A DNA stretch of 64,000 bases from Escherichia coli. GTDB taxonomy: Bacteria; Pseudomonadota; Gammaproteobacteria; Enterobacterales; Enterobacteriaceae. Shown here in pieces: positions 1-48,877 of the stretch (positions within the stretch are counted from its first letter, which is position 1; each line of letters begins with the position of its first letter). The position numbers were made by a program, and so were the translations under genes. Location: assembly GCF_024700885.2 (NCBI RefSeq), contig NZ_CP117016.1; one strand, written 5' to 3'. The notes beneath the pieces are model-generated. The model was not told where the DNA came from, did not search any database, and saw only the letters and a program-made list of their open reading frames with translations.

Positions 1-215
1 AGTCAAATTTGTCCAACTTCCCTTGATTAAAAACAACGAGTTTTTTTATAGAAAAGAAAAACTTTCTCGCATAAGCTGAACTAAAATTCACAGCAGTATA
101 GGCAAGGGTCTCTTTTATAGATGCTAATAAGATAGCATTAATGTTTCTTTCAAAATATGAGAAATTTAATTTAACATCTTTGCTGAGAAACCAAACACTA
201 TCATGTAAACTAAAA

Positions 216-1547
216 TTATTTCTGCTGTCTTTTGCCTTTAATACCAAGTAATTTTCTAACATTAATGCTTTCATCTATTTCTCCTTCAATTTTATTTATG
301 ATTTCTTGATTCACTAAATCTGCCTCTTCAAAAGCTTTTAAAGTTTCTTCACTAATATAACGATTGTTATAAATCAAAGCCGTTTTGGAGTTCATTTTCC
401 ACCCCATTCTTACGCATCTGATTCTATCTAATTGGGTCAATCTATATTGATCAGTGACTCCTATGTATTTTAAACTGTAAATATAGTTCCATGTGTGCCG
501 TAGACAATGCCCTGTGAAATTTTGAAAAGATACTCCATTGAATTCAATTCTACTTATTTGCTTAATTACTTTATGATATGCACTTATTGACAGAGGAAAT
601 CCTTCCGTAGGACCAGATTTTTGAGTAATAAATAAGTAATTATGATTTAAGCTTTTCGAATAGAAAGACCTATCATTGTCTATATATGAAGAGATTTGCA
701 TAGACAATTTTTTGCTAATATTTAATTCTCGTTCAAATGTTTTAACAAGTGGTTGAAAAACTCTTGGGTCTGCTGGATCATTTATTCTTTTACAAACTTT
801 CAGATATCTTTTTTCCTTGTTAAAATCAGTAATTTTCAAGTTCAATAGCTCACCCCCTCGCATTCCAGTTTCCTGAAGAATGAGGATTATGAGTTGATTT
901 CTTTTACGGCAACTGATATCAACAAATGGATTGTATTGGCTTTCAGGTTCTATACATTGCAATAGAATGTCTAAGCTTTCTTTTTCTAATGATTTAAAAT
1001 CATTATTCAAATAGAATTGAGAGTTTAATTTTGGTTTATGTTTACGAAAAAGCAAACTAACACTTTTTGATATAATGTTTGTCTCATATATTGTAGTGCT
1101 AAAATATGATTCATAAATCCAAGAAATGTAGGAACTAATTACTGTCAATCTATAATGAAGATTTTCTTGATTGATCTTTTTATACTCTTTTATATCTATA
1201 ACTTTTTGTTTTTTATTTTTAACTCTAAGTTGTTCTGACAATGAATAGATTTCAGTAAAGCTAAGGAAGGTCTTAGATCTAATTCTTTCGATAAGATTTA
1301 TATTTGATTCTATTAGATAATTTTCAAAAGCAATCAAAGTGTAAGCATTTCTCAATACTGTATTAAATGACTTATTCTTTTGCTTATATAGCAAACTAAG
1401 ATATATATTTTGATAATACAATGGCAAACCGTTTTTTGAATCCAAAATCATACAAAATCTGCTTCCATCACTCGCCATTAACTTCTTTACTGAATATCTC
1501 CTATTCATTATCACCCCATAATTTATTTTTTTATTTATAGGTAACAT
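216..1547 (-). mobile_element. Tyrosine site-specific recombinase (phage integrase family), AT-rich foreign gene
   Basis: 443 aa ORF; recombinase motifs seen in translation: ETGMRGGELLNL (box I Arg), GHCLRHTWNY (H-x-x-R), LIYNNRY (candidate catalytic Tyr). Strongly AT-rich codon usage unlike flanking core genes. ATG at 1545-1547. Confidence 0.6.
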
Positions 1548-1626
1548 AATTTTTTAGCAAGTTACAAATTTATTTGCTATTATTTTCAATGACCTTATTA
1601 CTCGCGACTCTAATAAAGAATCGGCC

Positions 1627-1652
1627 ATATATTCACCTTAAGGTGAATATAT
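1627..1652. promoter_or_regulatory. Perfect 26-bp palindrome ATATATTCACCTTAAGGTGAATATAT just upstream of the tRNA cluster; candidate operator or recombinase site
   Basis: Read directly: 11-bp inverted arms around a TTAA centre, followed by TTGACG at 1661-1666. Function unverified. Confidence 0.3.
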
Positions 1653-1680
1653 ATTCCCTCTTGACGCTCCAAAAAACAAT

Positions 1681-1757
1681 GCGGTAGTAGTTCAGTTGGT
1701 CAGAATATTCCCCTGTCACGGGAATGGTCGTGGGTTCGAGTCCCATCTATCGCGCCA
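1681..1757 (+). tRNA. tRNA-Asp (anticodon GUC), island-borne
   Basis: Manual cloverleaf fold: acceptor GCGGTAG/CTATCGC, D arm GTTC/GAAT, anticodon stem TTCCC/GGGAA with loop CTGTCAC, T arm GTGGG-TTCGAGT-CCCAT, discriminator G, encoded CCA. Confidence 0.7.
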
Positions 1758-1761
1758 GAAA

Positions 1762-1836
1762 GGGCAATTAACTCATTGGTAGAGTGTATCTCTTACAAAG
1801 ATATGGCGGTTGGTTCGATTCCAACATTGCCCACCA
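1762..1836 (+). tRNA. tRNA-Val (anticodon UAC), island-borne
   Basis: Manual fold: acceptor GGGCAAT/ATTGCCC, D arm ACTC/GAGT, anticodon stem TATCT/AGATA with loop CTTACAA, T arm GTTGG-TTCGATT-CCAAC, encoded CCA. Differs from the chromosomal E. coli tRNA-Val sequence as recalled. Confidence 0.7.
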
Positions 1837-1847
1837 AAACATAAAAT

Positions 1848-1918
1848 GCGTCAGTATTTCAATGGTAGAATAAAACATTGCCAATGTTTAGGTGAGGGTT
1901 CGATCCCCCTATATTTAC
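1848..1918 (+). tRNA. tRNA-like element with Gly (GCC) anticodon arm; 3-prime acceptor strand not complementary, so possible pseudo-tRNA or recombination remnant
   Basis: D arm TTTC/GAAT, anticodon stem AAACA/TGTTT with loop TTGCCAA, T loop TTCGATC present. 5-prime acceptor GCGTCAG has no complementary 3-prime strand (ATATTTA) and no CCA. Confidence 0.3.
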
Positions 1919-2104
1919 TTTAGTTAGTAACTCATTGATATAAAATAAATAATAGAAAAGTGTAATTTGTTTTGTAAAGCACAAATAAGAAATTAGAAAA
2001 TATTTAAATGTACAGTGTACGAAAAATTAACCAACTATGTTAATGGCAACTATATGATGATAAAATTACTCATCTAACGATCTATATTATATGAGTAATG
2101 TTTC

Positions 2105-2680
2105 ATGGTACGAAAAATCTCTACATTTTTAAAGATAATAGGAGTTATAGGTTCTTTATGCGGGATTATTGCGACAGTATTCACAATCTATGCGTACTAC
2201 AACCCGACCTCCCCTTCTACTCAGAGATATGACAGTATTGTAGGAAGCTGGCTATCTGATTACTCTTACACCGTAAAAGGGAATACCGTTAGGGTTAATG
2301 GAAAAACGACCTTCTTCTCTAATGGAAAATACAACTTTCATGGCAGTATCTCTATTGACTCTAATGCTCCAGGTGACCATATATTAATAGATTATCTTTC
2401 TGATGGTGCTGGTGATTGGGAACTATATGATAATGAGTTAATTACATCATTAAATAGCCTAAAAACAAAACCTATGAAGCTGGCTTTAAATAACGAAGAT
2501 CTTGATCCACTGAAAATAGAGGTGATAAACAATAAAAAGTTACCAACTATTGAGGAGAATATGGCTGATGGGAAAAACCAATCCTATAAAATAATAAAAT
2601 CTTCAAAAAGCCAGTTAACATTGGAGGTTATTAACGAAATCGGAAGCAATTTCAACTTTACTATGCAAAAAACAAAATAG
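2105..2680 (+). CDS. Hypothetical membrane-anchored protein (single N-terminal TM helix), island cargo
   Basis: 191 aa ORF; hydrophobic N-terminus FLKIIGVIGSLCGIIATVFTIYAYY; AT-rich; convergent with the helicase gene and sharing a terminator with it. Confidence 0.45.
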   Translation: MVRKISTFLKIIGVIGSLCGIIATVFTIYAYYNPTSPSTQRYDSIVGSWLSDYSYTVKGNTVRVNGKTTFFSNGKYNFHGSISIDSNAPGDHILIDYLSDGAGDWELYDNELITSLNSLKTKPMKLALNNEDLDPLKIEVINNKKLPTIEENMADGKNQSYKIIKSSKSQLTLEVINEIGSNFNFTMQKTK

Positions 2681-2682
2681 AA

Positions 2683-2714
2683 ATGATGGCGATCTGAAAT
2701 CGCCATCATTTTTC
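2683..2714. terminator. Bidirectional rho-independent terminator between convergent genes
   Basis: Hairpin TGATGGCGAT-cugaa-ATCGCCATCA followed by TTTTT. Confidence 0.5.
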
Positions 2715-4560
2715 AACCTTGATAATCTTCAGCCTCGATACCACAATAAGTTATCATGTTTGTTATTAACGGTATATCATTACAATTCTGCTTGAAAGAC
2801 CTGCCATAACTATTGTTTCTTATTTTACAACGAGTCATTAATACTTCTTCAATGGCTCTTGAAAATGCCACAAAGACTGTTTTTTGATTTTCTATTTGCT
2901 CTTCTTCTTTACCAAAATAGGCACCAGGTTCAAGCCCCACAACGATGACCTTCCTGAACTCTAACCCTTTACTTTTATGGATGGTCATAAGAGGTATTGT
3001 TTTATTGCCAAGTAATAAATCAATGGCTTCTGATGTGTTTTCTTTTACATCTAACTTATCGAGGTGGCGAGAAAGTAATTCTATGCTATATTCTAAAACA
3101 TTCCCACTCATATACTGCGGAAAGTAAGACTTTATTTTATCGACACCAAATATACTTAATAATGAATATAAATAATCGACAATTTCTCCTTTAATTACCC
3201 GATGAGATTTAATAAACTGGCTAAGTTCTTTTTCTAACCGTGTAACATCACCTCTTTTACTTACTCCTCTTATATTACATAGAAGCTCCATTGTAGTGGC
3301 CCAGCTTTCTATGGATTTTCTATTACAGACAAACATTAGCATTTGTAAAAGTAACTGTACTACAGCTTCATTTAAAAGATCCTGATACTCGTTCTCAAGG
3401 CGACATTGTATTTTCAAATATTGCAATGCTGAAATGATATCGTCTGTATATTGTTTAGCCGGGTTTCTTAGCAGTATACATATATCTCTTTCATTTACTC
3501 CTTCAGCAATCCATTGCTGGATACATAATGCTATATATGCCCCTTCAATACTACTTTCGTCAAATTGTAGTAACTTAGCTGAACCTTCATTTTCAATCAA
3601 CATCATATCAGGCTTTATATCAGCATGATTCATGAAAGCTTCCATCATGCGTTGATAATTTATGAGGTTTTTTAATGACCTTCTATTGCTAACTAATTCA
3701 TTAGATTGTTCGATTCCAAAATCTTTTTTAAACACATCAAAAGCATTGTGCATTGCACCTGCCCAACCCATTATTCTTTGTTTTGTATCACCGACTGCTG
3801 TTATTTTTATTTTTTTACCCAAGAAAATGCTCTTAAAAATCTCATATTGCCTATATGTTGTGTCCTGAAACTCATCGATAAAAGCATAGTCATATGTTGA
3901 ATTTATAGCATTAGATAAATATTGATTCCTACTAATAATATAATTAGCAAGAAAATTAATCATCTTGAATGAAATCCTTGATTTTGGTTTTAATAAGTGT
4001 AACCACACAAACCGTCTTATCCTGCCATCAACAGAATGTTCTAATGCTTTATTATAAGGAGTTACTATATAATTCTCTTCAAAATTATAAGGTTGTAATT
4101 TATTTAATTCTTCAGATGTTAAACCTTCAAAGCCTACGGCCTCTCTTTTAATTTCTTCAACTAAATCATTATTATTTGGAAAGATTATTTCATAGTCATT
4201 TGATGGACGATAAGATTCCGGAATAGTGCTTTTAAAGCGATCAACAATACTTTTACAGAATGCATCAAATGTTGTTGATTCAAATTTGTGTCTATATTTT
4301 GTATCAAGCCGTGAGTTTACTCTATCTTGAAGATTTTTGGCCGCATCTTTTTTAAAGGATAATGCAATTATTTTTTTATTGCTGCATTTTCCTGTCTCAA
4401 TCAAGAAACAAGCTTTCTGAGCCAATAATTCTGTTTTACCTGCACCGGGACCAGCAAGAACGAGATTATGCCCTGTACTATTTCGAATTACCCTCATAGC
4501 CTCGTCTTCTACTTCTTGGATATCCTTTAAAACCCAATCGGCATCTTTAATAGTCGGCAT
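2713..4560 (-). CDS. UvrD/PcrA-like superfamily 1 helicase (GajB-like)
   Basis: 615 aa; SF1 helicase motifs in translation: LAGPGAGKTELL (I), IDEFQDTT (II), GDTKQRIMGW (III), VSNRRS (IV), TIHKSKGLEF (V), VAFSRA (VI). ATG overlaps the upstream stop by 1 nt (TAATG). Confidence 0.8.
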   Translation of the reverse strand: MPTIKDADWVLKDIQEVEDEAMRVIRNSTGHNLVLAGPGAGKTELLAQKACFLIETGKCSNKKIIALSFKKDAAKNLQDRVNSRLDTKYRHKFESTTFDAFCKSIVDRFKSTIPESYRPSNDYEIIFPNNNDLVEEIKREAVGFEGLTSEELNKLQPYNFEENYIVTPYNKALEHSVDGRIRRFVWLHLLKPKSRISFKMINFLANYIISRNQYLSNAINSTYDYAFIDEFQDTTYRQYEIFKSIFLGKKIKITAVGDTKQRIMGWAGAMHNAFDVFKKDFGIEQSNELVSNRRSLKNLINYQRMMEAFMNHADIKPDMMLIENEGSAKLLQFDESSIEGAYIALCIQQWIAEGVNERDICILLRNPAKQYTDDIISALQYLKIQCRLENEYQDLLNEAVVQLLLQMLMFVCNRKSIESWATTMELLCNIRGVSKRGDVTRLEKELSQFIKSHRVIKGEIVDYLYSLLSIFGVDKIKSYFPQYMSGNVLEYSIELLSRHLDKLDVKENTSEAIDLLLGNKTIPLMTIHKSKGLEFRKVIVVGLEPGAYFGKEEEQIENQKTVFVAFSRAIEEVLMTRCKIRNNSYGRSFKQNCNDIPLITNMITYCGIEAEDYQG

Positions 4561-6548
4561 TAAAGTAATCCTCTTACTGTTTCGATAATTTCATTAAGAA
4601 CTTCAGGACTATCATCTCTTAACTTATCGTCTTCCATTTTTGATAGAACATAATTGTGCGATAATGGTTTACCTCTTCCTAAAAATAGGTAACGATACCA
4701 AAAATATTTTTCATAATCATCGAACTCACTAATATCAATATCTTTCTCTTCTTTTTTCAAAACTGCAGCAATTGCCGATTTAACTTTATTATCATATTCA
4801 TGATCGTCATCTTTTGGCAATCTTGGCCCACCATTTTTGGGAACAAATGTCTTATAATCCTCAAAGAATTTATTAAGCATTAGCCAATCTAAATCGTAGG
4901 GGTAAGAAAAATAAACATTATAATCTTTTAGACAATTAATCCATGCCGATTCATTATCTTGATCCTCATCCCATGTATGCATTTTTTCAAGCTCTTCATC
5001 ACTTAAAGTTCCTGAAGTAATACTTAACAATTCATTTTTATCTGCACCTATAGATATTAATTGTTTGACTGCATATTTAATTCTTCCCCAACCACCACCT
5101 CCTCCTCTCTTGAAATCATAGTCGAGAAGAGTCACATGTGGAATTGAAAGCTCATTGAGTAACTTCCAAAAATGATTAACATATCGCCCTCCTAATGGAG
5201 CAAATGTTATCAATGAAGTGTCAAGCTCTATACCATTTACTTGAGCTATTTTAGGTATTACTATTTCTTCGCTATCACCTTCACCAAGTATTACAACTTT
5301 TGCAAAATAAATTTCTGGATATGCCTTCACTGCTTCTTTTACATAAGTGAAAGTATCAACATTGTCTCCATCGTCTTCATCTTCGCTTGGTAATAATATT
5401 GGTTTGACAACAGTATTTTTATTATCATGTAGACGAAAATACCTTATATTTTCTGGTTCTACTCTATTGAGTAATGAAGGTGCGTGTGTTGTTAAAACAA
5501 CCTGTGCTCGATCATTCTCAGATATATCTTCACATAGTTTAACTATTCTTCCTAAATATTGGGGTGAAAGATGATTTTCTGGTTCTTCGATTAATATTAT
5601 CGTTAAATTTGGAGGATCTAATGCTTCTACTGATATTGATAATTCATTTTCTCCTGAATTAATGATCTCATCTTCAATATCAAATGCAGATTTGACTAAC
5701 GAAAGATAAAACAATGACTTCATACCATCACTCAATCTTTCAGTTGGTAATGGCTGAGTCACCGGAGTAGGCATAAATACAGTATCTATATGCTTTAATA
5801 CATCTTCTATTCCATTCATTACTGGCTGAATTTTAAGCTGTTCAAAATACCCTCCGCTAAAAAGAGTTTTCCAATTTCTGCCCAATGAAGATGTTATTGT
5901 CTGAACCCCAATTTCTTCTTGGAACTGGTTTCCGATTGATTCTGCAACCTCATCAACCGTTGAACTCATCTGTTCAGACCATTCAACTGCATTTATCAAA
6001 CGGTGCATGATGGTTCCGGCTGTTTGCTTCAGTTGTTGAGCAGGATCGCGATAAGCAGGGACATAATGAACATGGATTTTTGATCTTTCATATGCTGTAA
6101 TATTTTTTTCATATTCTCCTATTTCCCATACTAAATCACTATCTATATCCCCTTCTGCAAGATTAGTTTTTGTCCATTTAGCTTTTAATTTTGCTATACA
6201 GTATGGGATCTGGTCTGCTTCATTTGAGACCAAATGCTTAAAGAAATCAGCGACTGAATCGTCCTCACCATCTTGCAGATCTGCAAATTCAAATTTTACA
6301 CGAACTGATAATTCTCTTTCATCTTGAGTATCGATTTCATCTCCAGGAGGAACATAAAAATCATCAACTTGAACAATTCTATCGGAGCTTTTGACACCAA
6401 ACATCCTTGTCAATGCGAGGAGAACAGCCGTCTTACCTGTTCCATTCCCTCCAATTAAGCTGGTGAATGAATTTATATTTATAGTTTGCCCTACATTATC
6501 AAAGCTCTTAAAACCTTTGATCTCCATTTGTGTAATTTTCATTATCAC
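4560..6548 (-). CDS. OLD-family ABC-type ATPase with C-terminal TOPRIM nuclease domain (GajA-like)
   Basis: 662 aa ORF from a GTG; likelier ATG start at 6542 with GAGGTG Shine-Dalgarno. Walker A GGNGTGKT, ILIEEPENHLSP (Walker B/D-loop typical of OLD ATPases), VLTTHAP (H-loop), TOPRIM-like VVILGEGDSEEIV and LLDYDFKRGGGGGWG. Confidence 0.8.
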   Translation of the reverse strand: MIMKITQMEIKGFKSFDNVGQTININSFTSLIGGNGTGKTAVLLALTRMFGVKSSDRIVQVDDFYVPPGDEIDTQDERELSVRVKFEFADLQDGEDDSVADFFKHLVSNEADQIPYCIAKLKAKWTKTNLAEGDIDSDLVWEIGEYEKNITAYERSKIHVHYVPAYRDPAQQLKQTAGTIMHRLINAVEWSEQMSSTVDEVAESIGNQFQEEIGVQTITSSLGRNWKTLFSGGYFEQLKIQPVMNGIEDVLKHIDTVFMPTPVTQPLPTERLSDGMKSLFYLSLVKSAFDIEDEIINSGENELSISVEALDPPNLTIILIEEPENHLSPQYLGRIVKLCEDISENDRAQVVLTTHAPSLLNRVEPENIRYFRLHDNKNTVVKPILLPSEDEDDGDNVDTFTYVKEAVKAYPEIYFAKVVILGEGDSEEIVIPKIAQVNGIELDTSLITFAPLGGRYVNHFWKLLNELSIPHVTLLDYDFKRGGGGGWGRIKYAVKQLISIGADKNELLSITSGTLSDEELEKMHTWDEDQDNESAWINCLKDYNVYFSYPYDLDWLMLNKFFEDYKTFVPKNGGPRLPKDDDHEYDNKVKSAIAAVLKKEEKDIDISEFDDYEKYFWYRYLFLGRGKPLSHNYVLSKMEDDKLRDDSPEVLNEIIETVRGLL

Positions 6549-7195
6549 CTCAATTGCTGTTTTAAAAAATTATAATCACTAATTATTTCTGCGTTTGTAA
6601 TGATTTCTTGTGAGCACAGCTTAAAACATTCTAAAAATATATTTTTATTATCGTTATGTTCCCAATGTTTTTTCAAAGCTTCTTCAATTGAAATCCAAAT
6701 AACTTGAAAATCGTTATTAGATATTTGGCTTGTTAAAACTGTTTCTTCCACACAAAGTATATGCCCTAAGATGACATCATCGTATATGTCAGTATCTGAA
6801 TCTCTAACTCCTAACCTTTTTATTTTCCTTTTTTGGATGATTTTATTTTTAACAATAAAAGGATGTTCTTCTATAAAATCGGTCAATGATGTAAAAGCCA
6901 AGCCACGAACCTGAGCACCATGCATTGAACTATTTACTTTATGGATATCTCTCCAAACTCGCAGATCACCTAATACATAGAGAACCCGCTGATTTCTCGC
7001 TTTCGTATCTTCTGCTTGGTATTGGATATAAGGTGGCCCTCCCCCATTTTGTCTATATCGGGCAAGGGTTTTGATGCTTATGCCAAGAAAGACAGAAGCA
7101 AGCTCACTATTTACAGTGGCAGAATCAGGCATTTGACCAAATAGTTTCCATACCTCTGAATACTCCCGCAAAACTTCCACCACACTCATCTTCAC
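6545..7195 (-). CDS. HTH-domain protein (excisionase/MerR-like N-terminus plus uncharacterised ~130 aa C-terminal domain), first gene of the defense operon
   Basis: 216 aa ORF (GTG at 7195 or ATG at 7189). N-terminal ELASVFLGISIKTLARYRQNGGGPPYIQY resembles excisionase-type HTH. Starts within 2 nt of the integrase stop and ends 2 nt before the GajA-like start. Confidence 0.5.
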   Translation of the reverse strand: MKMSVVEVLREYSEVWKLFGQMPDSATVNSELASVFLGISIKTLARYRQNGGGPPYIQYQAEDTKARNQRVLYVLGDLRVWRDIHKVNSSMHGAQVRGLAFTSLTDFIEEHPFIVKNKIIQKRKIKRLGVRDSDTDIYDDVILGHILCVEETVLTSQISNNDFQVIWISIEEALKKHWEHNDNKNIFLECFKLCSQEIITNAEIISDYNFLKQQLR

Positions 7196-8655
7196 TCCCT
7201 CGTTTCAGGTAATGGAGGATACTTAGCCGAAGCAAGTAACACATTGTATAATTTAGGAGCAGTCATAAGCATATGCAACTCAATCCTTTGTAATGCTTCA
7301 AAAATCCGTTCTTGATCAGGTTCTGCATACCTTTCTGTTGGATCTGTTGTATTTCTGTGATTGAGCAGTCTCTTAACGACGGCATATGAAACAAGTTCTT
7401 CAGCAACCCTACCAAATGTCCTTCGTAGATCATGCATACCAAGCTTCAGGATTCCCGCCTCTTGGCAGATATATTCCCTTAGACTTTTACTATCGGAATA
7501 GTGACCAACTTTACTTCGAGAAGAACGGGCCGGGAAAACCCACTTCTGTTTGTCCTTCTGGGTTACCGTATCGTTTACTATGTCTCTTCTATCTTCCAAA
7601 ATTCTTTTGACAGCATCACAAATCGGAAGCTCGTGATCGTTTCGATTCTTAGTGTCGTAAAAACGGATAGTTCTGTTACTCAGGTCAACATAGCTTGTCG
7701 TTTTAGCTTCTTCCTTTGTAAGAGACTCTCGCCAACACAGAGAAGCTGTTTCTTCCTTACGAGCACCTAAGAGAACGGTAAGTAGCAGATAATCGCACCC
7801 AAGCCGGTTGAAGCTTCTCTTGTTGAACAATGCAGTCAAGAACCGACCAAGTGTATCCTTTGGTGATAAGGGGTTTCTGACACCTTTTGCCCGATAACTA
7901 TCCTCAAGCTCAGAACGTGTCCTAAACTTTTTCTGTACCTTTAAGATACTGAAAGGGTTGTAAGATAGAGAAGGTTGTCGTTGCTGGGTCTGAGCATTCC
8001 CAGCTTCAATCTCTATTGCGTGTTTTACAGCAACATTCGCCCACCTAAAGGTCTGTTCCGCTGCTGTTCTGGCTCTTGAAGCAATCTCATCAAACTTCCT
8101 AAGAATTTCATTACCAGTAAGATCTTTAACTCGCAAACCAGCCCACTCAGAAAGCCTGTTTTCTGCTTTATCTAATACAGCCAAGGTGTTGGGTTTAGCT
8201 GGTTTCGCTCTACCCAGCAGATGCTGGCGGTATTGTGCAAACACTTCACTGATAGTGAGTTCAGAAGCATCGGACTCCCGTTTTATTTTGTTAGGGTTCC
8301 TTTTGGTCAACTTCATGGTTTGAACTAAATTGCGAGCAACCTCGCGGGCTTGATCGATGTTAGCGAAATCAGAGACATTGCCAATTGTAGACCTGATAAC
8401 CTCAGATGGGGATTTTCCCCCTGTCTTAGGGCGATTGCCAGGAGAAGAGACTCGTCGCTGAACGATATAGGTCTTTTTCGTTGCACTGATTTTGACACCA
8501 AAACCAACGGGTGAATCCCGGTGATTATCAGTGATAAGATACGGTTTTCGCTCTGGATTGGGTAAGTAGACTACTCTGCCTTGCGGATCAAGGCTCGGTT
8601 TCACGTCGATAGATAACTTATTGATTATAATCGACTGATTGAGTGTCATTTTCAT
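7192..8655 (-). mobile_element. int: P4-type tyrosine integrase
   Basis: ORF track 7192..8763; trimmed to internal ATG (MKMTLNQ...) at 8653-8655. N-terminal arm-binding-like region (YLITDNHRDSPVGFGVKISATKKTYIVQRR), box I ARKEE, HDLRRTF, C-terminal ERY. Near-host GC, unlike the cargo. Confidence 0.8.
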
Positions 8656-8658
8656 CGA

Positions 8659-8717
8659 TGTATACCAGTGGTTCAAGTGTGTATACCAGATAGTAGCTAG
8701 AATACTTCTGGTATACA
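8659..8717. repeat. Three copies of TGTATACCAG (two direct, one inverted) at the integrase 5-prime end; candidate integrase-binding or att-associated sites
   Basis: Exact 10-mers at 8659-8668 and 8680-8689 (direct) and 8708-8717 (inverted), between the integrase start and mutS. Confidence 0.45.
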
Positions 8718-8787
8718 AATTTATGGGTTTATGTGAGTTTAAAGGGGTATCACTTGGGGCCACATAAGTACTCAGAAGACTTTAAAA

Positions 8788-11370
8788 ATGAGTAAAATCA
8801 ATATGAAAGAGTCTGCAAGCAAGGATCTATCAGACCACACTCCTATGATGCAGCAATATCTCAAGCTGAAAGCCCAGCATCCCGAGATCCTGCTGTTTTA
8901 CCGGATGGGTGATTTTTATGAACTGTTTTATGACGACGCAAAACGCGCGTCGCAACTGCTGGATATTTCACTGACCAAACGCGGTGCTTCGGCGGGAGAG
9001 CCGATCCCGATGGCGGGGATCCCCTACCATGCGGTGGAAAACTACCTCGCCAAACTGGTGAATCAGGGCGAGTCCGTTGCCATCTGCGAACAAATTGGCG
9101 ATCCGGCGACCAGCAAAGGTCCGGTTGAGCGCAAAGTTGTGCGTATCGTTACGCCAGGCACCATCAGCGATGAAGCCCTGTTGCAGGAGCGTCAGGACAA
9201 CCTGCTGGCGGCTATCTGGCAGGACAGCAAAGGTTTCGGCTACGCGACGCTGGATATCAGTTCCGGGCGTTTTCGCCTGAGCGAACCGGCTGACCGCGAA
9301 ACGATGGCGGCAGAGCTGCAACGCACTAATCCGGCAGAGCTGTTGTATGCAGAAAATTTCGCCGAGATGTCGCTGATTGAAGGTCGTCGCGGACTGCGCC
9401 GTCGCCCGCTATGGGAGTTTGAAATCGACACCGCGCGCCAGCAGTTGAATCTGCAATTTGGCACCCGCGATCTGGTCGGTTTTGGCGTCGAGAACGCGCC
9501 GCGCGGACTTTGTGCTGCCGGTTGTCTGTTGCAGTATGCGAAAGATACCCAACGTACGACTCTGCCGCATATTCGTTCCATCACCATGGAACGTGAGCAG
9601 GACAGCATCATTATGGATGCCGCGACGCGTCGTAATCTGGAAATCACCCAGAACCTGGCGGGTGGTGCGGAAAATACGCTGGCTTCTGTGCTCGACTGCA
9701 CCGTCACGCCGATGGGCAGCCGTATGCTGAAACGCTGGCTGCATATGCCAGTGCGCGATACCCGCGTCTTGCTTGAGCGCCAGCAAACTATTGGCGCATT
9801 GCAGGATTTCACCGCCGAGCTGCAGCCGGTACTGCGTCAGGTCGGCGACCTGGAACGTATTCTGGCGCGTCTGGCTTTACGAACTGCTCGCCCACGCGAT
9901 CTGGCCCGTATGCGTCACGCTTTCCAGCAACTGCCGGAGCTGCGTGCGCTATTAGAAAATGTCGATAGCGCTCCGGTACAGGCGCTGCGTGAAAAAATGG
10001 GCGAGTTTGCCGAGCTGCGCGATCTGCTGGAGCGAGCAATCATCGACACACCGCCAGTGCTGGTACGCGACGGTGGTGTTATCGCACCGGGCTATAACGA
10101 AGAGCTGGATGAGTGGCGCGCGCTGGCTGACGGCGCGACCGATTATCTGGAGCGTCTGGAAGTCCGCGAGCGTGAACGTACTGGCCTGGACACCCTGAAA
10201 GTCGGCTTTAACGCGGTTCATGGTTATTACATTCAGATCAGCCGTGGACAAAGCCATCTGGCACCCATCAATTACATGCGTCGCCAGACGCTGAAAAACG
10301 CCGAGCGCTACATTATTCCAGAGCTAAAAGAGTACGAAGACAAAGTTCTCACTTCAAAAGGCAAAGCACTGGCACTGGAAAAACAGCTTTATGAAGAGTT
10401 GTTCGACCTGCTGTTGCCGCATCTGGAAGCGTTGCAACAGAGCGCGAGCGCGCTGGCGGAACTCGACGTGCTGGTGAACCTGGCAGAACGGGCCTATACG
10501 CTGAACTACACCTGCCCGACCTTTATTGATAAACCGGGTATTCGCATCACCGAAGGCCGCCATCCGGTGGTTGAACAGGTGCTGAATGAGCCGTTTATCG
10601 CCAACCCGCTGAACCTGTCGCCGCAGCGTCGCATGTTGATCATTACCGGTCCGAATATGGGCGGTAAAAGTACCTATATGCGCCAGACCGCACTGATTGC
10701 GCTGATGGCCTACATCGGCAGCTATGTACCGGCACAAAAAGTCGAGATTGGACCTATCGATCGCATCTTTACCCGCGTAGGGGCAGCGGATGATCTGGCA
10801 TCCGGGCGTTCAACCTTTATGGTGGAAATGACCGAAACCGCCAATATTTTACATAACGCCACCGAGTACAGTCTGGTGCTGATGGATGAGATTGGGCGCG
10901 GGACGTCCACTTACGATGGTCTGTCGCTGGCGTGGGCGTGCGCGGAAAATCTGGCGAATAAGATTAAAGCGTTGACACTGTTTGCCACCCACTATTTCGA
11001 GCTGACCCAGTTACCGGAGAAAATGGAAGGCGTCGCCAACGTGCATCTCGATGCGCTGGAGCACGGCGACACCATTGCCTTTATGCACAGCGTGCAGGAT
11101 GGCGCGGCGAGCAAAAGCTACGGCCTGGCGGTTGCAGCTCTGGCAGGCGTGCCAAAAGAGGTTATTAAGCGCGCACGGCAAAAACTGCGTGAGCTGGAAA
11201 GCATTTCGCCGAACGCCGCCGCTACGCAAGTGGATGGTACGCAAATGTCTTTGCTGTCAGTGCCAGAAGAAACGTCGCCTGCGGTCGAGGCACTGGAAAA
11301 CCTCGACCCGGATTCACTGACTCCGCGTCAGGCGCTGGAGTGGATTTATCGCTTGAAGAGTCTGGTGTAA
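8788..11370 (+). CDS. mutS: DNA mismatch repair protein MutS, with a non-K-12 N-terminus
   Basis: 860 aa; near-identical to E. coli MutS from about residue 17 (HTPMMQQYL...). First ~16 residues ([16 protein letters not shown]) differ from the K-12 N-terminus (MSAIENFDA, from memory). Confidence 0.95.
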
Positions 11371-11376
11371 TAACAA

Positions 11377-11403
11377 TTCCCGATAGTCTTTTGCTATCGG
11401 GAA
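11377..11403. terminator. Hairpin downstream of mutS
   Basis: TTCCCGATAG-tcttttg-CTATCGGGAA inverted repeat. Confidence 0.4.
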
Positions 11404-11475
11404 TATTAACGACAACTGACGAATCAAATAAAAACACCCTGTATAATAGGAAATCTTATTTTACAGGGTAAAACC

Positions 11476-12132
11476 ATGCCATCTACACGCTATCAAAAAA
11501 TTAATGCCCATCACTATCGTTATATATGGGCCGTTGGTGATATTCATGGTGACTATCAATTATTACAATCCCGCTTACATCAACTCTCTTTTTGCCCTGA
11601 AACCGACTTACTTATTTCTGTCGGCGATAATATTGATCGTGGGCCGGAGAGTCTTAACGTACTACGCCTGTTAAACCAGCCCTGGTTTACATCGGTTAAA
11701 GGCAACCATGAAGCGATGGCGCTTGATGCATTCGAAACTGGCGATGGAAATATGTGGCTTGCCAGCGGCGGCGACTGGTTCTTTGAATTAAATGAGACGG
11801 AACAACAAGAAGCAATAAATCTGTTGCTGAAATTTCATCGCCTTCCACATATTATTGAAATCACTAACGATATAATAAAATATGTCATCGCACATGCAGA
11901 TTATCCGGGGAATGAATATCTCTTTGGCAAAGAAATAGCGGAGAGAGAACTACTCTGGCCTGTTGATCGTGTGCAGAAATCGCTTAATGGCGAGTTACAA
12001 CAAATAAACGGCGCTGATTATTTTATATTTGGACATATGATGTTTGATAACATTCAGACGTTCGCAAACCAGATTTATATTGATACCGGATCGCCGAAAA
12101 GCGGGCGGCTGTCATTTTATAAAATAAAGTAG
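11476..12132 (+). CDS. pphB: Serine/threonine protein phosphatase 2
   Basis: 218 aa, metallophosphatase motifs GDIHGD, GDNIDRG, GNHE; position after mutS as in K-12. Confidence 0.9.
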   Translation: MPSTRYQKINAHHYRYIWAVGDIHGDYQLLQSRLHQLSFCPETDLLISVGDNIDRGPESLNVLRLLNQPWFTSVKGNHEAMALDAFETGDGNMWLASGGDWFFELNETEQQEAINLLLKFHRLPHIIEITNDIIKYVIAHADYPGNEYLFGKEIAERELLWPVDRVQKSLNGELQQINGADYFIFGHMMFDNIQTFANQIYIDTGSPKSGRLSFYKIK

Positions 12133-31184: not shown

Positions 31185-32222
31185 ATGTTTTCCGCATTGC
31201 GCCACCGTACCGCTGCCCTGGCGCTCGGCGTATGCTTTATTCTCCCCGTACACGCCTCGTCACCTAAACCTGGCGATTTTGCTAATACCCAGGCACGACA
31301 TATTGCTACTTTCTTTCCGGGACGCATGACCGGAACTCCTGCAGAAATGTTATCTGCCGATTATATTCGCCAACAGTTTCAGCAAATGGGTTATCGCAGT
31401 GATATTCGGACATTTAATAGTCGGTATATTTATACCGCCCGCGATAATCGCAAGAGCTGGCATAACGTGACGGGAAGTACGGTGATTGCCGCTCATGAAG
31501 GCAAAGCGCCGCAGCAGATCATCATTATGGCGCATCTGGATACTTACGCCCCGCTGAGCGATGCTGACGCCGATGCCAATCTCGGCGGGCTGACGTTACA
31601 AGGAATGGATGATAATGCCGCAGGTTTAGGTGTCATGCTGGAACTGGCAGAACGCCTGAAAAATACGCCTACCGAGTATGGTATTCGATTTGTGGCGACC
31701 AGTGGTGAAGAGGAAGGGAAATTAGGTGCTGAGAATTTACTCAAGCGGATGAGTGACACCGAAAAGAAAAATACGCTGCTGGTGATTAATCTCGATAACT
31801 TAATTGTTGGCGATAAATTGTATTTCAACAGTGGTGTAAAAACCCCTGAAGCAGTAAGGAAATTAACGCGCGACAGGGCACTGGCAATTGCGCGTAGTCA
31901 TGGAATTGCCGCAACGACCAATCCGGGTTTGAATAAAAATTATCCGAAGGGTACTGGCTGTTGTAATGACGCCGAAGTTTTCGACAAAGCCGGTATTGCC
32001 GTACTTTCGGTAGAAGCAACAAATTGGAATCTTGGGAATAAGGATGGTTATCAGCAACGCGCAAAAACAGCAGCATTCCCTGCGGGAAATAGCTGGCATG
32101 ACGTAAGACTGGATAATCAACAACATATTGATAAGGCACTTCCAGGAAGAATAGAACGTCGCTGCCGTGATGTTATGCGGATAATGCTACCGCTGGTGAA
32201 GGAGCTGGCGAAGGCGTCTTGA
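31185..32222 (+). CDS. iap: Alkaline phosphatase isozyme conversion aminopeptidase
   Basis: 345 aa with signal peptide; divergent from cysD as in K-12. Confidence 0.85.
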   Translation: MFSALRHRTAALALGVCFILPVHASSPKPGDFANTQARHIATFFPGRMTGTPAEMLSADYIRQQFQQMGYRSDIRTFNSRYIYTARDNRKSWHNVTGSTVIAAHEGKAPQQIIIMAHLDTYAPLSDADADANLGGLTLQGMDDNAAGLGVMLELAERLKNTPTEYGIRFVATSGEEEGKLGAENLLKRMSDTEKKNTLLVINLDNLIVGDKLYFNSGVKTPEAVRKLTRDRALAIARSHGIAATTNPGLNKNYPKGTGCCNDAEVFDKAGIAVLSVEATNWNLGNKDGYQQRAKTAAFPAGNSWHDVRLDNQQHIDKALPGRIERRCRDVMRIMLPLVKELAKAS

Positions 32223-32348
32223 TGGGTTTGAAATGATTACTCCCTTGCCTGCAGGAAATCAATGCCACCAGAAACAGAGTATAAAAAAGGGGTGCAGGAG
32301 GCCAAACTTTAACAATTCAATACGCGGGGTTTTACCCCCGCGTGGTGG

Positions 32349-32501
32349 CTACTTCTTCGATTCGTAAGCGAGAACTGCCTTAAACTCCATACCACGTTCT
32401 CTGATACTCAACTCACACAACGAGTCGCCTACCATCAGCGTGAATCCCAGTACTGTACAACACAGTACGATGATTGCCACAAGGGCATATTTTGTCAGCA
32501 T
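32349..32501 (-). CDS. Hok/Gef-family type I toxin (small membrane peptide), apparently intact
   Basis: 50 aa [53 protein letters not shown] with the SLCE...AYES signature of Hok/Gef toxins; GGAGG Shine-Dalgarno 6 nt upstream. Not in the ORF track (under 60 aa). Confidence 0.6.
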
Positions 32502-32765
32502 GTCTTGCCTCCCTGCAAAGAAGAGACTAACATTCGAATTGCTTAGGTTCGAACGCTGGCCTCAGGTTGATAGAAATATCGCCTGGGGCTTTTGTCCATC
32601 TGGAACCTCGCGAATGCTTAACGCCAGACAGCCTCAAGCACCCAACTCCATTCTATACCTGTTAATTCTCCCTGCGATGTTCACCTTTAAATGCCGGAAT
32701 GCTGCTCGCAAAATAAAAACGCCCCCATCATTTCTGACAGAGGCGTTTAATTTATCCGGCAATAT

Positions 32766-33500
32766 TTACCCTTCGTGTAACCCACATTCCCTTTTTAAGC
32801 CAAAGAAACGCGTTTCTTCTTCCGCCATGCCGGGTTCCCATTTACGGGTTGTATGGGTATCGCCCACCGATAAATATCCTTCGTCCCATAATGGGTGATA
32901 TTTCAGGCCATGTTTTTGCAGGTACTGATAAATAGTTCGGTTATCCCAGTCGATAATCGGCAGCACTTTAAATACGCCACGCTGAATTGCCAGCACCGGT
33001 AAATTGGCGCGGCTGCCGGATTGTTCACGGCGCAGGCCAGCAAACCAGGTTTGCGCGTTAAGTTCTTTCAGCGCCCGGTTCATCGGTTCGACTTTGTTGA
33101 TGTCATTGTACTTTTCAATGCCTTCAACGCCCTGCTCCCACAGTTTGCCGTAGCGCGCTTCCTGCCAGGCGGCGCTTTCGGTAGCGCGGTACACTTTCAG
33201 GTTGAGCTTGAGTTTGTCCGTTAACTCGTCAATAAAGCGGTAGGTTTCCGGGAACAGATAACCCGTATCGGTCAGGATCACCGGGATATCCGGGTGAATC
33301 TGATTCACCAGATGCAGGCTCACCGCCGCCTGAATGCCGAAACTGGAAGAAAGTACATATTCACCGGGCAGATTATCCAGCGCCCAGGCAACGCGGCCTT
33401 CAGCATCCAGTTTTTCCAGTTCGGCGTTAGTTTCTGCCAGCGCCAGAATGCGATCTACCTTCGGCAGTTCGTTCAGGGCGTTTAGATCGAGTTTGGACAT
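32766..33500 (-). CDS. cysH: Phosphoadenosine phosphosulfate reductase
   Basis: ORF trimmed to [12 protein letters not shown]... (244 aa); the track extension reads through a REP element. Confidence 0.9.
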
Positions 33501-33521
33501 AGATTCCTCACTGTTTGCCTT

Positions 33522-33557
33522 GCCTGATGCGACGCTCACGCGTCTTATCAGGCCTAC
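33522..33557. repeat. REP (repetitive extragenic palindromic) element between cysI and cysH
   Basis: GCCTGATGCGACGCTCACGCGTCTTATCAGGCCTAC, the typical E. coli REP consensus shape. Confidence 0.5.
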
Positions 33558-48559: not shown

Positions 48560-48605
48560 GTGAGGAAGGCCGGGCGGGAAACTGCCCGGCCTGAACATAC
48601 CTGAA

Positions 48606-48877
48606 TGGTTATCCCCGCTGACGCGGGGAACTCGCCAGTGCCTGGTCATATGTGTAACACCTATCCGGTTTATCCCCGCTCGCGCGGGGAACTCTTGCTG
48701 TATAGAGATTATCGGCGTGGGATTGTCGGTTTATCCCCGCTCGCGCGGGGAACTCGTTTGCGGCTTGCAAACATTTTAATGCGTATTCGGTTTATCCCCG
48801 CTCGCGCGGGGAACTCCCAGCCCGACACAAATAATGCAGCATTGCGCGCGGTTTATCCCCGCTCGCGCGGGGAACTC
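48606..48877 (-). CRISPR. Orphan type I-E-like CRISPR array: 4 intact 29-bp repeats plus 1 degenerate terminal repeat, four 32-bp spacers; AT-rich leader on the right (transcribed on minus strand)
   Basis: Repeats CGGTTTATCCCCGCTCGCGCGGGGAACTC at 48666-48694, 48727-48755, 48788-48816, 48849-48877; degenerate copy at 48606-48633. Spacers at 48634-48665, 48695-48726, 48756-48787, 48817-48848. Reverse complement matches the E. coli I-E repeat except one loop base. No cas genes in the window. Confidence 0.9.

Follow-up and report, generated by a model that had tools for sequence, protein, structure and literature searches.

The question raised by this locus is whether a small toxin gene has taken the place of the type I-E cas operon between iap and cysH, and whether that gene is part of a toxin–antitoxin (TA) module that might still function. 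An earlier note on this DNA had suggested that an intact hok-family ORF sits there instead of cas, in a natural cas-minus lineage of E. coli with a possibly functional type I TA locus. The window analysed here is the whole stretch of E. coli DNA, 64,000 nucleotides from contig NZ_CP117016.1.

The interval between iap and cysH

On the basis of the sequence, the ORF list and the annotation, the interval from the iap stop to the cysH stop is 32223-32765, or 543 bp, and hok is the only gene of the window that lies within it. The annotation used for comparison was that of the strain 1190 record, which is 99.98–99.99% identical to positions 8835-64000 of the window. The flanking features are as follows.

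31185..32222, plus strand: iap CDS, left flank (345-aa ORF; annotated iap in strain 1190)
32766..33500, minus strand: cysH CDS, right flank (annotated cysH in strain 1190)
32717..32748, minus strand: terminator of the cysJIH operon (terminator scan)

The 543-bp gap, the 50-aa Hok ORF, its Shine-Dalgarno (SD) sequence and the GC-rich hairpin were each found at the positions reported previously. A match to the Rfam family ctRNA_p42d (24.9 bits, against a gathering score of 50) was rejected, being explained by overlap with the stem-loop of the cysH terminator. It is worth adding that a palindromic element lies beyond cysH, at the cysI-cysH junction (33513-33554). It resembles the REP-like Rfam family naRNA4 on both strands, but its scores of 33.6 and 23.2 bits are below the gathering score of 59.5.

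A toxin gene of the Hok family

The toxin ORF lies on the minus strand, where it is preceded by a strong SD sequence.

32349..32501, minus strand: hokX toxin CDS, 50 aa (ORF; Pfam PF01848; RefSeq WP_000956458.1)
32508..32512, minus strand: hok SD sequence GGAGG, 6 nt before the ATG (sequence; kept in nine of ten loci)

The translation of 32349..32501 carries both the SLCE and the AYES motif. It matches the Pfam family HOK_GEF (PF01848) with an E value of 6.3e-10 over model positions 1-42 of 42, and the identical RefSeq product, WP_000956458.1, is labelled 'Hok/Gef family protein'. There are 318 homologues of the peptide, nearly all of which bear PF01848. Judged by its sequence, the predicted peptide is therefore a member of the Hok family, and the full Pfam match and the RefSeq annotation bear out the original identification of the ORF as a Hok-type toxin gene. 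The only NCBIfam models that it matches are the HokA equivalog and the Hok subfamily, in both cases below the curated cut-off (53 against 89 bits, and 39.5 against 73 bits, respectively). Because 53 bits is below the HokA cut-off, the peptide is not HokA.

The coding sequence is highly conserved. It differs at 0–1 nt from those of ST131 and 2009C-3133, and the remaining 390 bp of the interval differ from ST131 at 17 positions. Across phylogroups the flanking sequence diverges by 3–5%, whereas the hokX CDS is nearly invariant.

For wider comparison, ten loci from six genera were aligned. These are the window, E. coli ST131, an EHEC-type E. coli, Klebsiella, two Citrobacter, two Enterobacter copies, Scandinavium and Superficieibacter.

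The absence of cas genes and the distribution of the locus

There are no type I-E cas genes and no CRISPR2.1 array in the 543-bp interval. Nor does the interval contain the I-E CRISPR repeat, which in this window is confined to 48.6–48.9 kb. No cas genes are annotated in the stretch of strain 1190 that matches the window position, or in the stretch of strain MLI114 that matches positions 1-8834 of the window, which are absent from strain 1190. The sequence and the two annotations thus agree with the earlier note that neither the type I-E cas operon nor its array is present between iap and cysH.

The suggestion that the Hok ORF is there instead of cas does not survive comparison with cas-positive strains. 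In strain 2009C-3133 the identical Hok protein (WP_000956458.1) is encoded between cas3 and cysH, and a full cas operon and array separate hok from iap. In an EHEC-type contig, the identical Hok together with its regulatory RNA region is likewise found between cas3 and cysH. Since the identical Hok protein adjoins cas3 in cas-positive strains, the presence of hok is independent of cas. The toxin gene is a resident neighbour of cysH and not a replacement for cas.

The locus is very widely distributed. A megablast search with the 543-bp query found it in 5425 of 5426 complete E. coli genomes. At least 80% of the query is present in 4144 of the 5426, always on the chromosome and annotated as 'Hok/Gef family protein', and the form containing the ORF occurs in approximately 4144–4219. 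The earlier note stated that K-12 has only a remnant, and this is correct: the K-12 match spans positions 32499-32765 of the window and stops at the hok ATG, so that in K-12 (C600, MG1655) the hok ORF is lost, and what is left is the leader with the curated 59-nt sokX (b4701).

The cas-less arrangement can be recognised by a short segment next to iap.

32234..32281, no strand assigned: 48-nt junction segment found in cas-less genomes only (absent from the two cas-positive loci compared)

When the iap-hok junction was used as a query, it was found unbroken in 1123 genomes, ST131 and ATCC 25922 among them. A 65-nt query (32228-32292) that spans the 48-nt segment is present as a single copy in 1120 of 5426 genomes (21%), including CFT073, and is at least 99% identical in 1116 of these 1120. 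A junction shared by 1120–1123 of the 5426 complete genomes is not the mark of an unusual cas-minus lineage. Homology between cas-positive and cas-less loci resumes at 32282, directly after the U-run that follows a conserved GCACCC, and the boundary of the cas absence is thus just past the 3′ end of the predicted hok transcript. The part of the window from hok to cysH is 3.3% diverged from ST131, and the 68-nt junction is 100% identical. No similarity of the 48-nt segment to the I-E repeat or to the cas-positive loci was detected. The idea that the segment is a degenerate CRISPR repeat was discarded, since in local alignment to the I-E repeat it scored lower than the mean of the shuffles.

Both the locus and its cas-less arrangement have been described already, in publications from 2014, 2020 and 2025. 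Almendros et al. (2014) distinguished nine arrangements of the iap-cysH locus, the cas-less one being "arrangement B", and reported hok sok in all strains except carriers of the cas-E2 (K-12) variant (PMC3903273). In 2020 the homologue of hokX at cysH-iap in AIEC NRG857c was described as "hok-5", the name hokX being that used in E. coli B (PMC7232551). In a 2025 study of 237 urological strains, hok and sokX were found beside cysH in 90% and sokX alone in the rest; they adjoin cysH with or without cas, and in about half of the strains the region is devoid of CRISPR-Cas components (PMC12736100). The absence of cas is a separate event, an ancient deletion or non-acquisition, which affects approximately one fifth of sequenced E. 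coli.

The antisense RNA and the predicted promoters

The Rfam sok family matches positions 32643-32486 with 111.7 bits, compared to a gathering score of 59. This match falls on the hok-sense strand and thus spans the hok leader; the curated K-12 sokX lies inside it, on the opposite strand. The following features were identified.

32541..32599, plus strand: SokX antisense RNA, equivalent of K-12 b4701 (57/59 nt identical to curated K-12 sokX)
32505..32533, plus strand: predicted sokX promoter, TTGCCT (32505-32510), 17-nt spacer, TAACAT (32528-32533) (inferred from sequence)
32650..32655, minus strand: predicted −10 of the hok promoter, TAGAAT, 6 nt upstream of the GGGUGC start (inferred from sequence)

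SokX is predicted to fold into a 5′ tail, a terminator hairpin and a U-run (−22.7 kcal/mol, z −3.6). In nine of the ten loci the Sok strand folds more stably than the sense strand, which fits with selection acting on the hairpin in the antisense RNA. An antisense sok promoter was among the features that the earlier note had proposed to look for, and the candidate TTGCCT-17-TAACAT, predicted from the sequence, is kept in nine of the ten loci. It matches the consensus at 8 of 12 positions and so fell below the threshold of the consensus promoter scan, which missed both the hok and the sok promoter. The scan gave two hits, one inside the CDS and one inside the 3′ UTR, which are probably due to chance. 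For the hok promoter, a TAnnAT box occurs at the matching distance in all aligned loci, and no good −35 was found upstream of TAGAAT. On these predictions, the locus contains a cis-encoded antisense Sok that overlaps the hok leader and has its own putative promoter and terminator. The only published hint of expression that we found is the low read counts for sok_15/sokX in EHEC (PMC5331693).

Predicted structure of the hokX mRNA

The ends of the hokX mRNA were placed using the start of the Rfam sok model and the 5′ and 3′ blocks conserved in the ten loci. The predicted transcript and its elements are as follows.

32287..32643, minus strand: predicted full-length hokX mRNA, ~357 nt, from 5′ GGGUGC to 3′ GCACCC plus U-run (predicted ends)
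32612..32643, minus strand: tac element and 5′ metastable hairpin (local fold)
32523..32563, minus strand: Sok-target stem-loop of the hok mRNA, GAGGC...GUCUC base, loop with CUAA (local fold)
32322..32343, minus strand: GC-rich 3′ stem-loop, predicted terminal protective hairpin and IS186/IS421 target (folds; ten-locus alignment)
32290..32303, minus strand: fold-back inhibitory (fbi) element, GGCCUCCUGCACCC (complementarity to the 5′ end)

The alignment shows a series of conserved blocks. At the 5′ side there is a TAnnAT −10 box, 6–7 nt before an invariant GGGUGC 5′ end. The leader also contains the Sok terminator region, the target stem GAGGC...GNCUC, the block ATGNTA, which is the complement of the sok −10, and the block GGAGGCAA, whose two strands provide the hok SD and the sok −35 TTGCCT, respectively. 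At the 3′ side the conserved blocks are the ORF, the GC-rich hairpin and GCACCC, which is located 60–70 nt past the stop codon.

The full-length mRNA has a fold z-score of −3.1. The 5′ sequence GGGUGCUUGAGGCU is complementary to the 3′ sequence GGCCUCCUGCACCC at 12 of 14 positions, giving a duplex of −24.1 kcal/mol. The fbi core GCACCC is kept in the ten loci, with a compensatory extension in Citrobacter and Scandinavium; for example, Citrobacter has 5′ GGGUGCCG with 3′ CGGCACCC. Across the ten loci, three pairs of the tac-fbi helix are changed on both sides. In the unconstrained minimum free energy (MFE) fold the 3′ element pairs not with tac but with the hok SD region, to which its complementarity is worth −20.9 kcal/mol. 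A fold forced to contain the tac-fbi pairing has −126.9 kcal/mol compared to the MFE of −127.2 kcal/mol, and because only 0.3 kcal/mol separates them, the two alternative pairings of the 3′ element are indistinguishable by energy. The predicted structure sequesters the hok SD sequence GGAGG.

The local elements are also well conserved. The Sok-target stem-loop (−17.1 kcal/mol) is 92% paired over the ten loci with three compensatory pairs. The 5′ metastable hairpin (−17.5 kcal/mol) is 90.7% paired, compared to 37–46% in slid controls, with little covariation. The 3′ hairpin is CGCGGGG-N6-CCCCGCG at 32323-32342, and is 91% paired with one compensatory pair; by analogy with R1 hok it is predicted to have a protective role at the end of the processed hok mRNA (PMC9841398). 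Taken together, the tac-fbi, target and 3′ hairpin helices are 87.5% paired, compared to 31–53% when the partners are slid, where the percentage of paired cells is inflated by the fact that the structure tested came from the window sequence. These helices contain seven pairs with changes on both sides, a number reached by none of 500 shuffles. The long-distance tac/fbi pairing, the metastable 5′ hairpin and the terminal 3′ hairpin of the R1 paradigm are thus all present in the predicted structure.

The missing mok frame

In R1, Sok targets the translation initiation region of mok, and truncation of mok or premature stops within it abolish the translation of Hok (PMC9841398). An overlapping mok frame, which the earlier note had also proposed to look for, is absent in its canonical form, as judged from three-frame translation and the ten-locus alignment. 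The codon equivalent to the R1 mok start, which comes 8 nt after GAGGC, reads UCG in the window, and only three of the ten loci have AUG. These three are Klebsiella and the two Enterobacter copies, in which the AUG is in frame with hok and yields gene calls of 67 aa. One further candidate is present in the window.

32543..32599, minus strand: candidate non-canonical, interrupted mok-like ORF starting at AUG 32599, with SD GAGG (three-frame translation)

This ORF ends at a TAA codon (32545-32543), 47 nt short of hok. In K-12 and EHEC-type alleles the same codon is CAA and the frame is open. AUG 32599 itself is not kept in other genera. A third possibility, a 12-codon ORF from AUG 32533 whose TGA overlaps the hok ATG, was rejected, as its phase varies among genera; its ATG (32533-32531) is invariant, which is more readily accounted for by the sok −10 box TAACAT, to which it is complementary. 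None of the three candidates is conserved in both position and phase across the ten loci. The lack of a canonical mok frame makes the translation of Hok from the window allele uncertain, and we consider the chances that Hok is actually translated to be roughly even. A HokE/HokX clade without a conserved mok frame bears on how general the translational-coupling model from R1 is.

Two observations on the relatives may be added here. In Klebsiella a hokE-like gene lies between the gene for decarboxylase subunit D and mutS. The Enterobacter contig has two tandem copies of the hokE/X type (172-375 and 701-853), approximately 480 bp apart and with the same 50-aa Hok core, the first of which is called as the 67-aa, in-frame extended ORF.

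Natural inactivation of hok loci

Inactivated copies of this locus are often found in nature. Of the 4219 genomes that give any match to a query placed around the 3′ hairpin, 3415 match it without a break. In the other approximately 800 genomes the hairpin is interrupted or incompletely matched, and the one case inspected is an IS421 insertion. In VTB96933v, whose flanking proteins are identical to those of the window, IS421 lies inside the 3′ hairpin with a 12-bp target duplication; here, as with IS186 in K-12 hokE, the insertion cuts hok off from fbi. Elements of the IS421/IS186 family are thus seen at the matching 3′-hairpin position in two hok paralogues (VTB96933v 10548-12030; K-12 hokE 2008-3352; locus coordinates), which suggests that IS186 targets this hairpin repeatedly.

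In the EHEC-type allele (657-1008 of its locus) 5 nt are deleted, and with them the core of the hok SD and the sok −35 are lost. For this allele gene callers give an 81-aa ORF that fuses an upstream frame to Hok, which is found on 424 contigs. The allele is probably inactivated and mis-annotated as a longer protein. The hokX gene of E. coli B is inactivated by an insertion element, and the hok loci of K-12 have been called non-functional, citing Pedersen and Gerdes, 1999 (PMC7232551).

The window copy has no IS insertion, no SD deletion and no loss of the CDS. The locus looks structurally intact, and in view of the missing canonical mok frame it may or may not be functional.

Other elements in the window

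The window contains an orphan type I-E CRISPR array (48605-48877), with five repeats (CGGTTTATCCCCGCTCGCGCGGGGAAC, period 61) and four spacers. It is located at the CRISPR-II locus, between ygcE and queE.

Positions 1-8834 form an island adjacent to mutS, which is absent from strain 1190; of 5426 E. coli genomes, only 13 contain at least 80% of it. PADLOC identifies a Gabija pair on it, both genes being on the minus strand, with 798 bits for GajA (4560-6542) and 659 bits for GajB (2713-4560). The island also carries three tyrosine recombinase/integrase genes, two hypothetical genes, a tRNA-Asp (1681-1757) and a tRNA-Val (1762-1836). Although it has no I-E cas genes at iap-cysH, the strain retains this orphan array, and its Gabija system is encoded 24 kb from that locus, on an island that few genomes share.

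Between rpoS and mutS lies a variable region, at approximately 17.5–21.0 kb (placed by correspondence with the strain 1190 record, 1132049-1134870), with genes for a regulator of the MarR family and for subunits B, C and D of hydroxyarylic acid decarboxylase. A second TA module of the window, the type II pair mazE-mazF, is located downstream of relA at approximately 55.1–55.8 kb, as placed from annotation only by correspondence with positions 1097281-1097864 of the strain 1190 record.

Interpretation

On the basis of these observations, the locus is very probably a chromosomal hokX/sokX type I TA module, a close paralogue of hokE/sokE, which occupies its normal place on the cysH side of a known cas-less form of the iap-cysH region. 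For its function, the R1 mechanism would appear to be the best-supported model, in which the RNA elements are those predicted here and the dynamics are taken over by analogy. The full-length hokX mRNA would be held closed by its 3′ element, which could pair with either the 5′ tac or the hok SD region at nearly equal predicted energy. Slow trimming of the 3′ end back to the GC hairpin would open the mRNA; SokX would pair with the target loop, and the duplex would be degraded. If SokX were lost, Hok would be made and would depolarise the inner membrane.

A length of just 50 codons could suggest that the ORF is a chance product of intergenic sequence. The likelihood of this is practically nil, given the full-length Pfam match, the Rfam sok match at nearly twice the gathering score, the 318 homologues and the conserved RNA architecture. 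It is also very improbable that the hok module replaced the cas operon, or was acquired in its place, and so marks an unusual cas-minus lineage. This reading draws on the position of hok as the only gene between iap and cysH in the window, but the identical hok/sok unit stands between cas3 and cysH in cas-positive genomes, the homology between cas-positive and cas-less loci begins at the 3′ end of the hok transcript (32282), and the arrangement occurs in 21% of complete genomes and has been in print since 2014.

A more serious alternative is that the locus is a silent or decaying relic, in which the RNA elements persist while Hok is untranslated, the mok-type coupling being missing or interrupted, and there is no TA activity. 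The mok frame is indeed not conserved, the upstream ORF of the window is stopped by the TAA at 32545-32543, and premature stops in mok prevent Hok translation in R1 (PMC9841398). Natural inactivation is moreover frequent, as suggested by the approximately 800 genomes in which the match across the 3′ hairpin is broken or incomplete, by the 5-nt deletion of the EHEC-type allele and by the loss of the K-12 CDS, and the hok loci of K-12 are described as non-functional (PMC7232551). We nevertheless consider a relic unlikely, if well worth keeping in mind. The CDS is nearly invariant across phylogroups while its flanks diverge by 3–5%, and the peptide and all of the RNA elements are conserved in six genera with compensatory changes. 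The gene has a strong GGAGG SD of its own, sequestered in the predicted structure, which would be pointless for an untranslated ORF. The repeated, independent inactivation can itself be read the other way, since it suggests that the intact form is costly, and hence active.

We also put forward a more speculative idea, which we consider improbable: that the HokE/HokX clade is a natural mok-less variant, in which the 3′ fold-back silences hok through the SD as well as tac, and that the module acts as a 'do-not-delete' anchor. The notion of an anchor arises because one end of the cas deletion is only a few bases away from the 3′ terminus of the hok transcript, and because the only common toxin-less lineage, the K-12 type, has kept the antitoxin, as addiction logic would predict.

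Returning to the hokX/sokX module, the practical outcome is a correct annotation of the locus, and the correction of a tempting misreading in which a toxin replaced cas, when the configuration is a standard and published one. The window allele is an uninterrupted copy of hokX, and this makes it a reasonable substrate for testing the activity of chromosomal hok.

Comparison with known systems

The features that define R1 hok/Sok were taken from PMC9841398; in R1 they also include 3′ processing of the mRNA, cleavage of the hok-Sok duplex by RNase III and differences in RNA stability. The window locus resembles R1 hok/sok in its Hok-family toxin, in an antisense Sok with a 5′ tail and terminator hairpin, in the tac/fbi pairing, and in the metastable 5′ hairpin, the GAGGC...GNCUC target stem and the terminal 3′ hairpin, as far as these are predicted. 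It differs in that R1 has mok at the overlapping site, where the window has no mok frame and a shorter 5′ leader, and in that the 3′ element of the window is also complementary to the hok SD. The window locus is chromosomal, unlike that of plasmid R1, and plasmid stabilisation is therefore not its role.

K-12 hokE/sokE is 78% identical to the window hokX in amino acid sequence and approximately 78% identical in nucleotide sequence across the transcription unit, and its 5′ end, Sok hairpin, SD and 3′ hairpin all match. It is found at a different site, ybdK-entD, and its 3′ hairpin is interrupted by IS186, which separates it from fbi. Its upstream frame relations are shifted relative to those in the window by a difference of 4 nt ahead of the ATG.

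The organisation of the region is that of arrangement B (PMC3903273), namely iap, short intergenic DNA, hok sok and cysH, with no cas-E genes, leader or CRISPR2.1. Strains of B2, for example CFT073 and ST131, typically have this arrangement.

The closest counterpart is E. coli hokX/sokX itself, which shares the site adjacent to cysH, directly after the terminator of the cysJIH operon. The Hok protein is identical to WP_000956458.1 of both cas-positive and cas-less strains, and sokX is identical to that of K-12 at 57 of 59 nt. The K-12 copy lacks the toxin ORF, which the window copy has, and the copies of E. coli B and VTB96933v carry insertions, from which the window copy is free. There is no difference of kind between the window locus and E. 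coli hokX/sokX.
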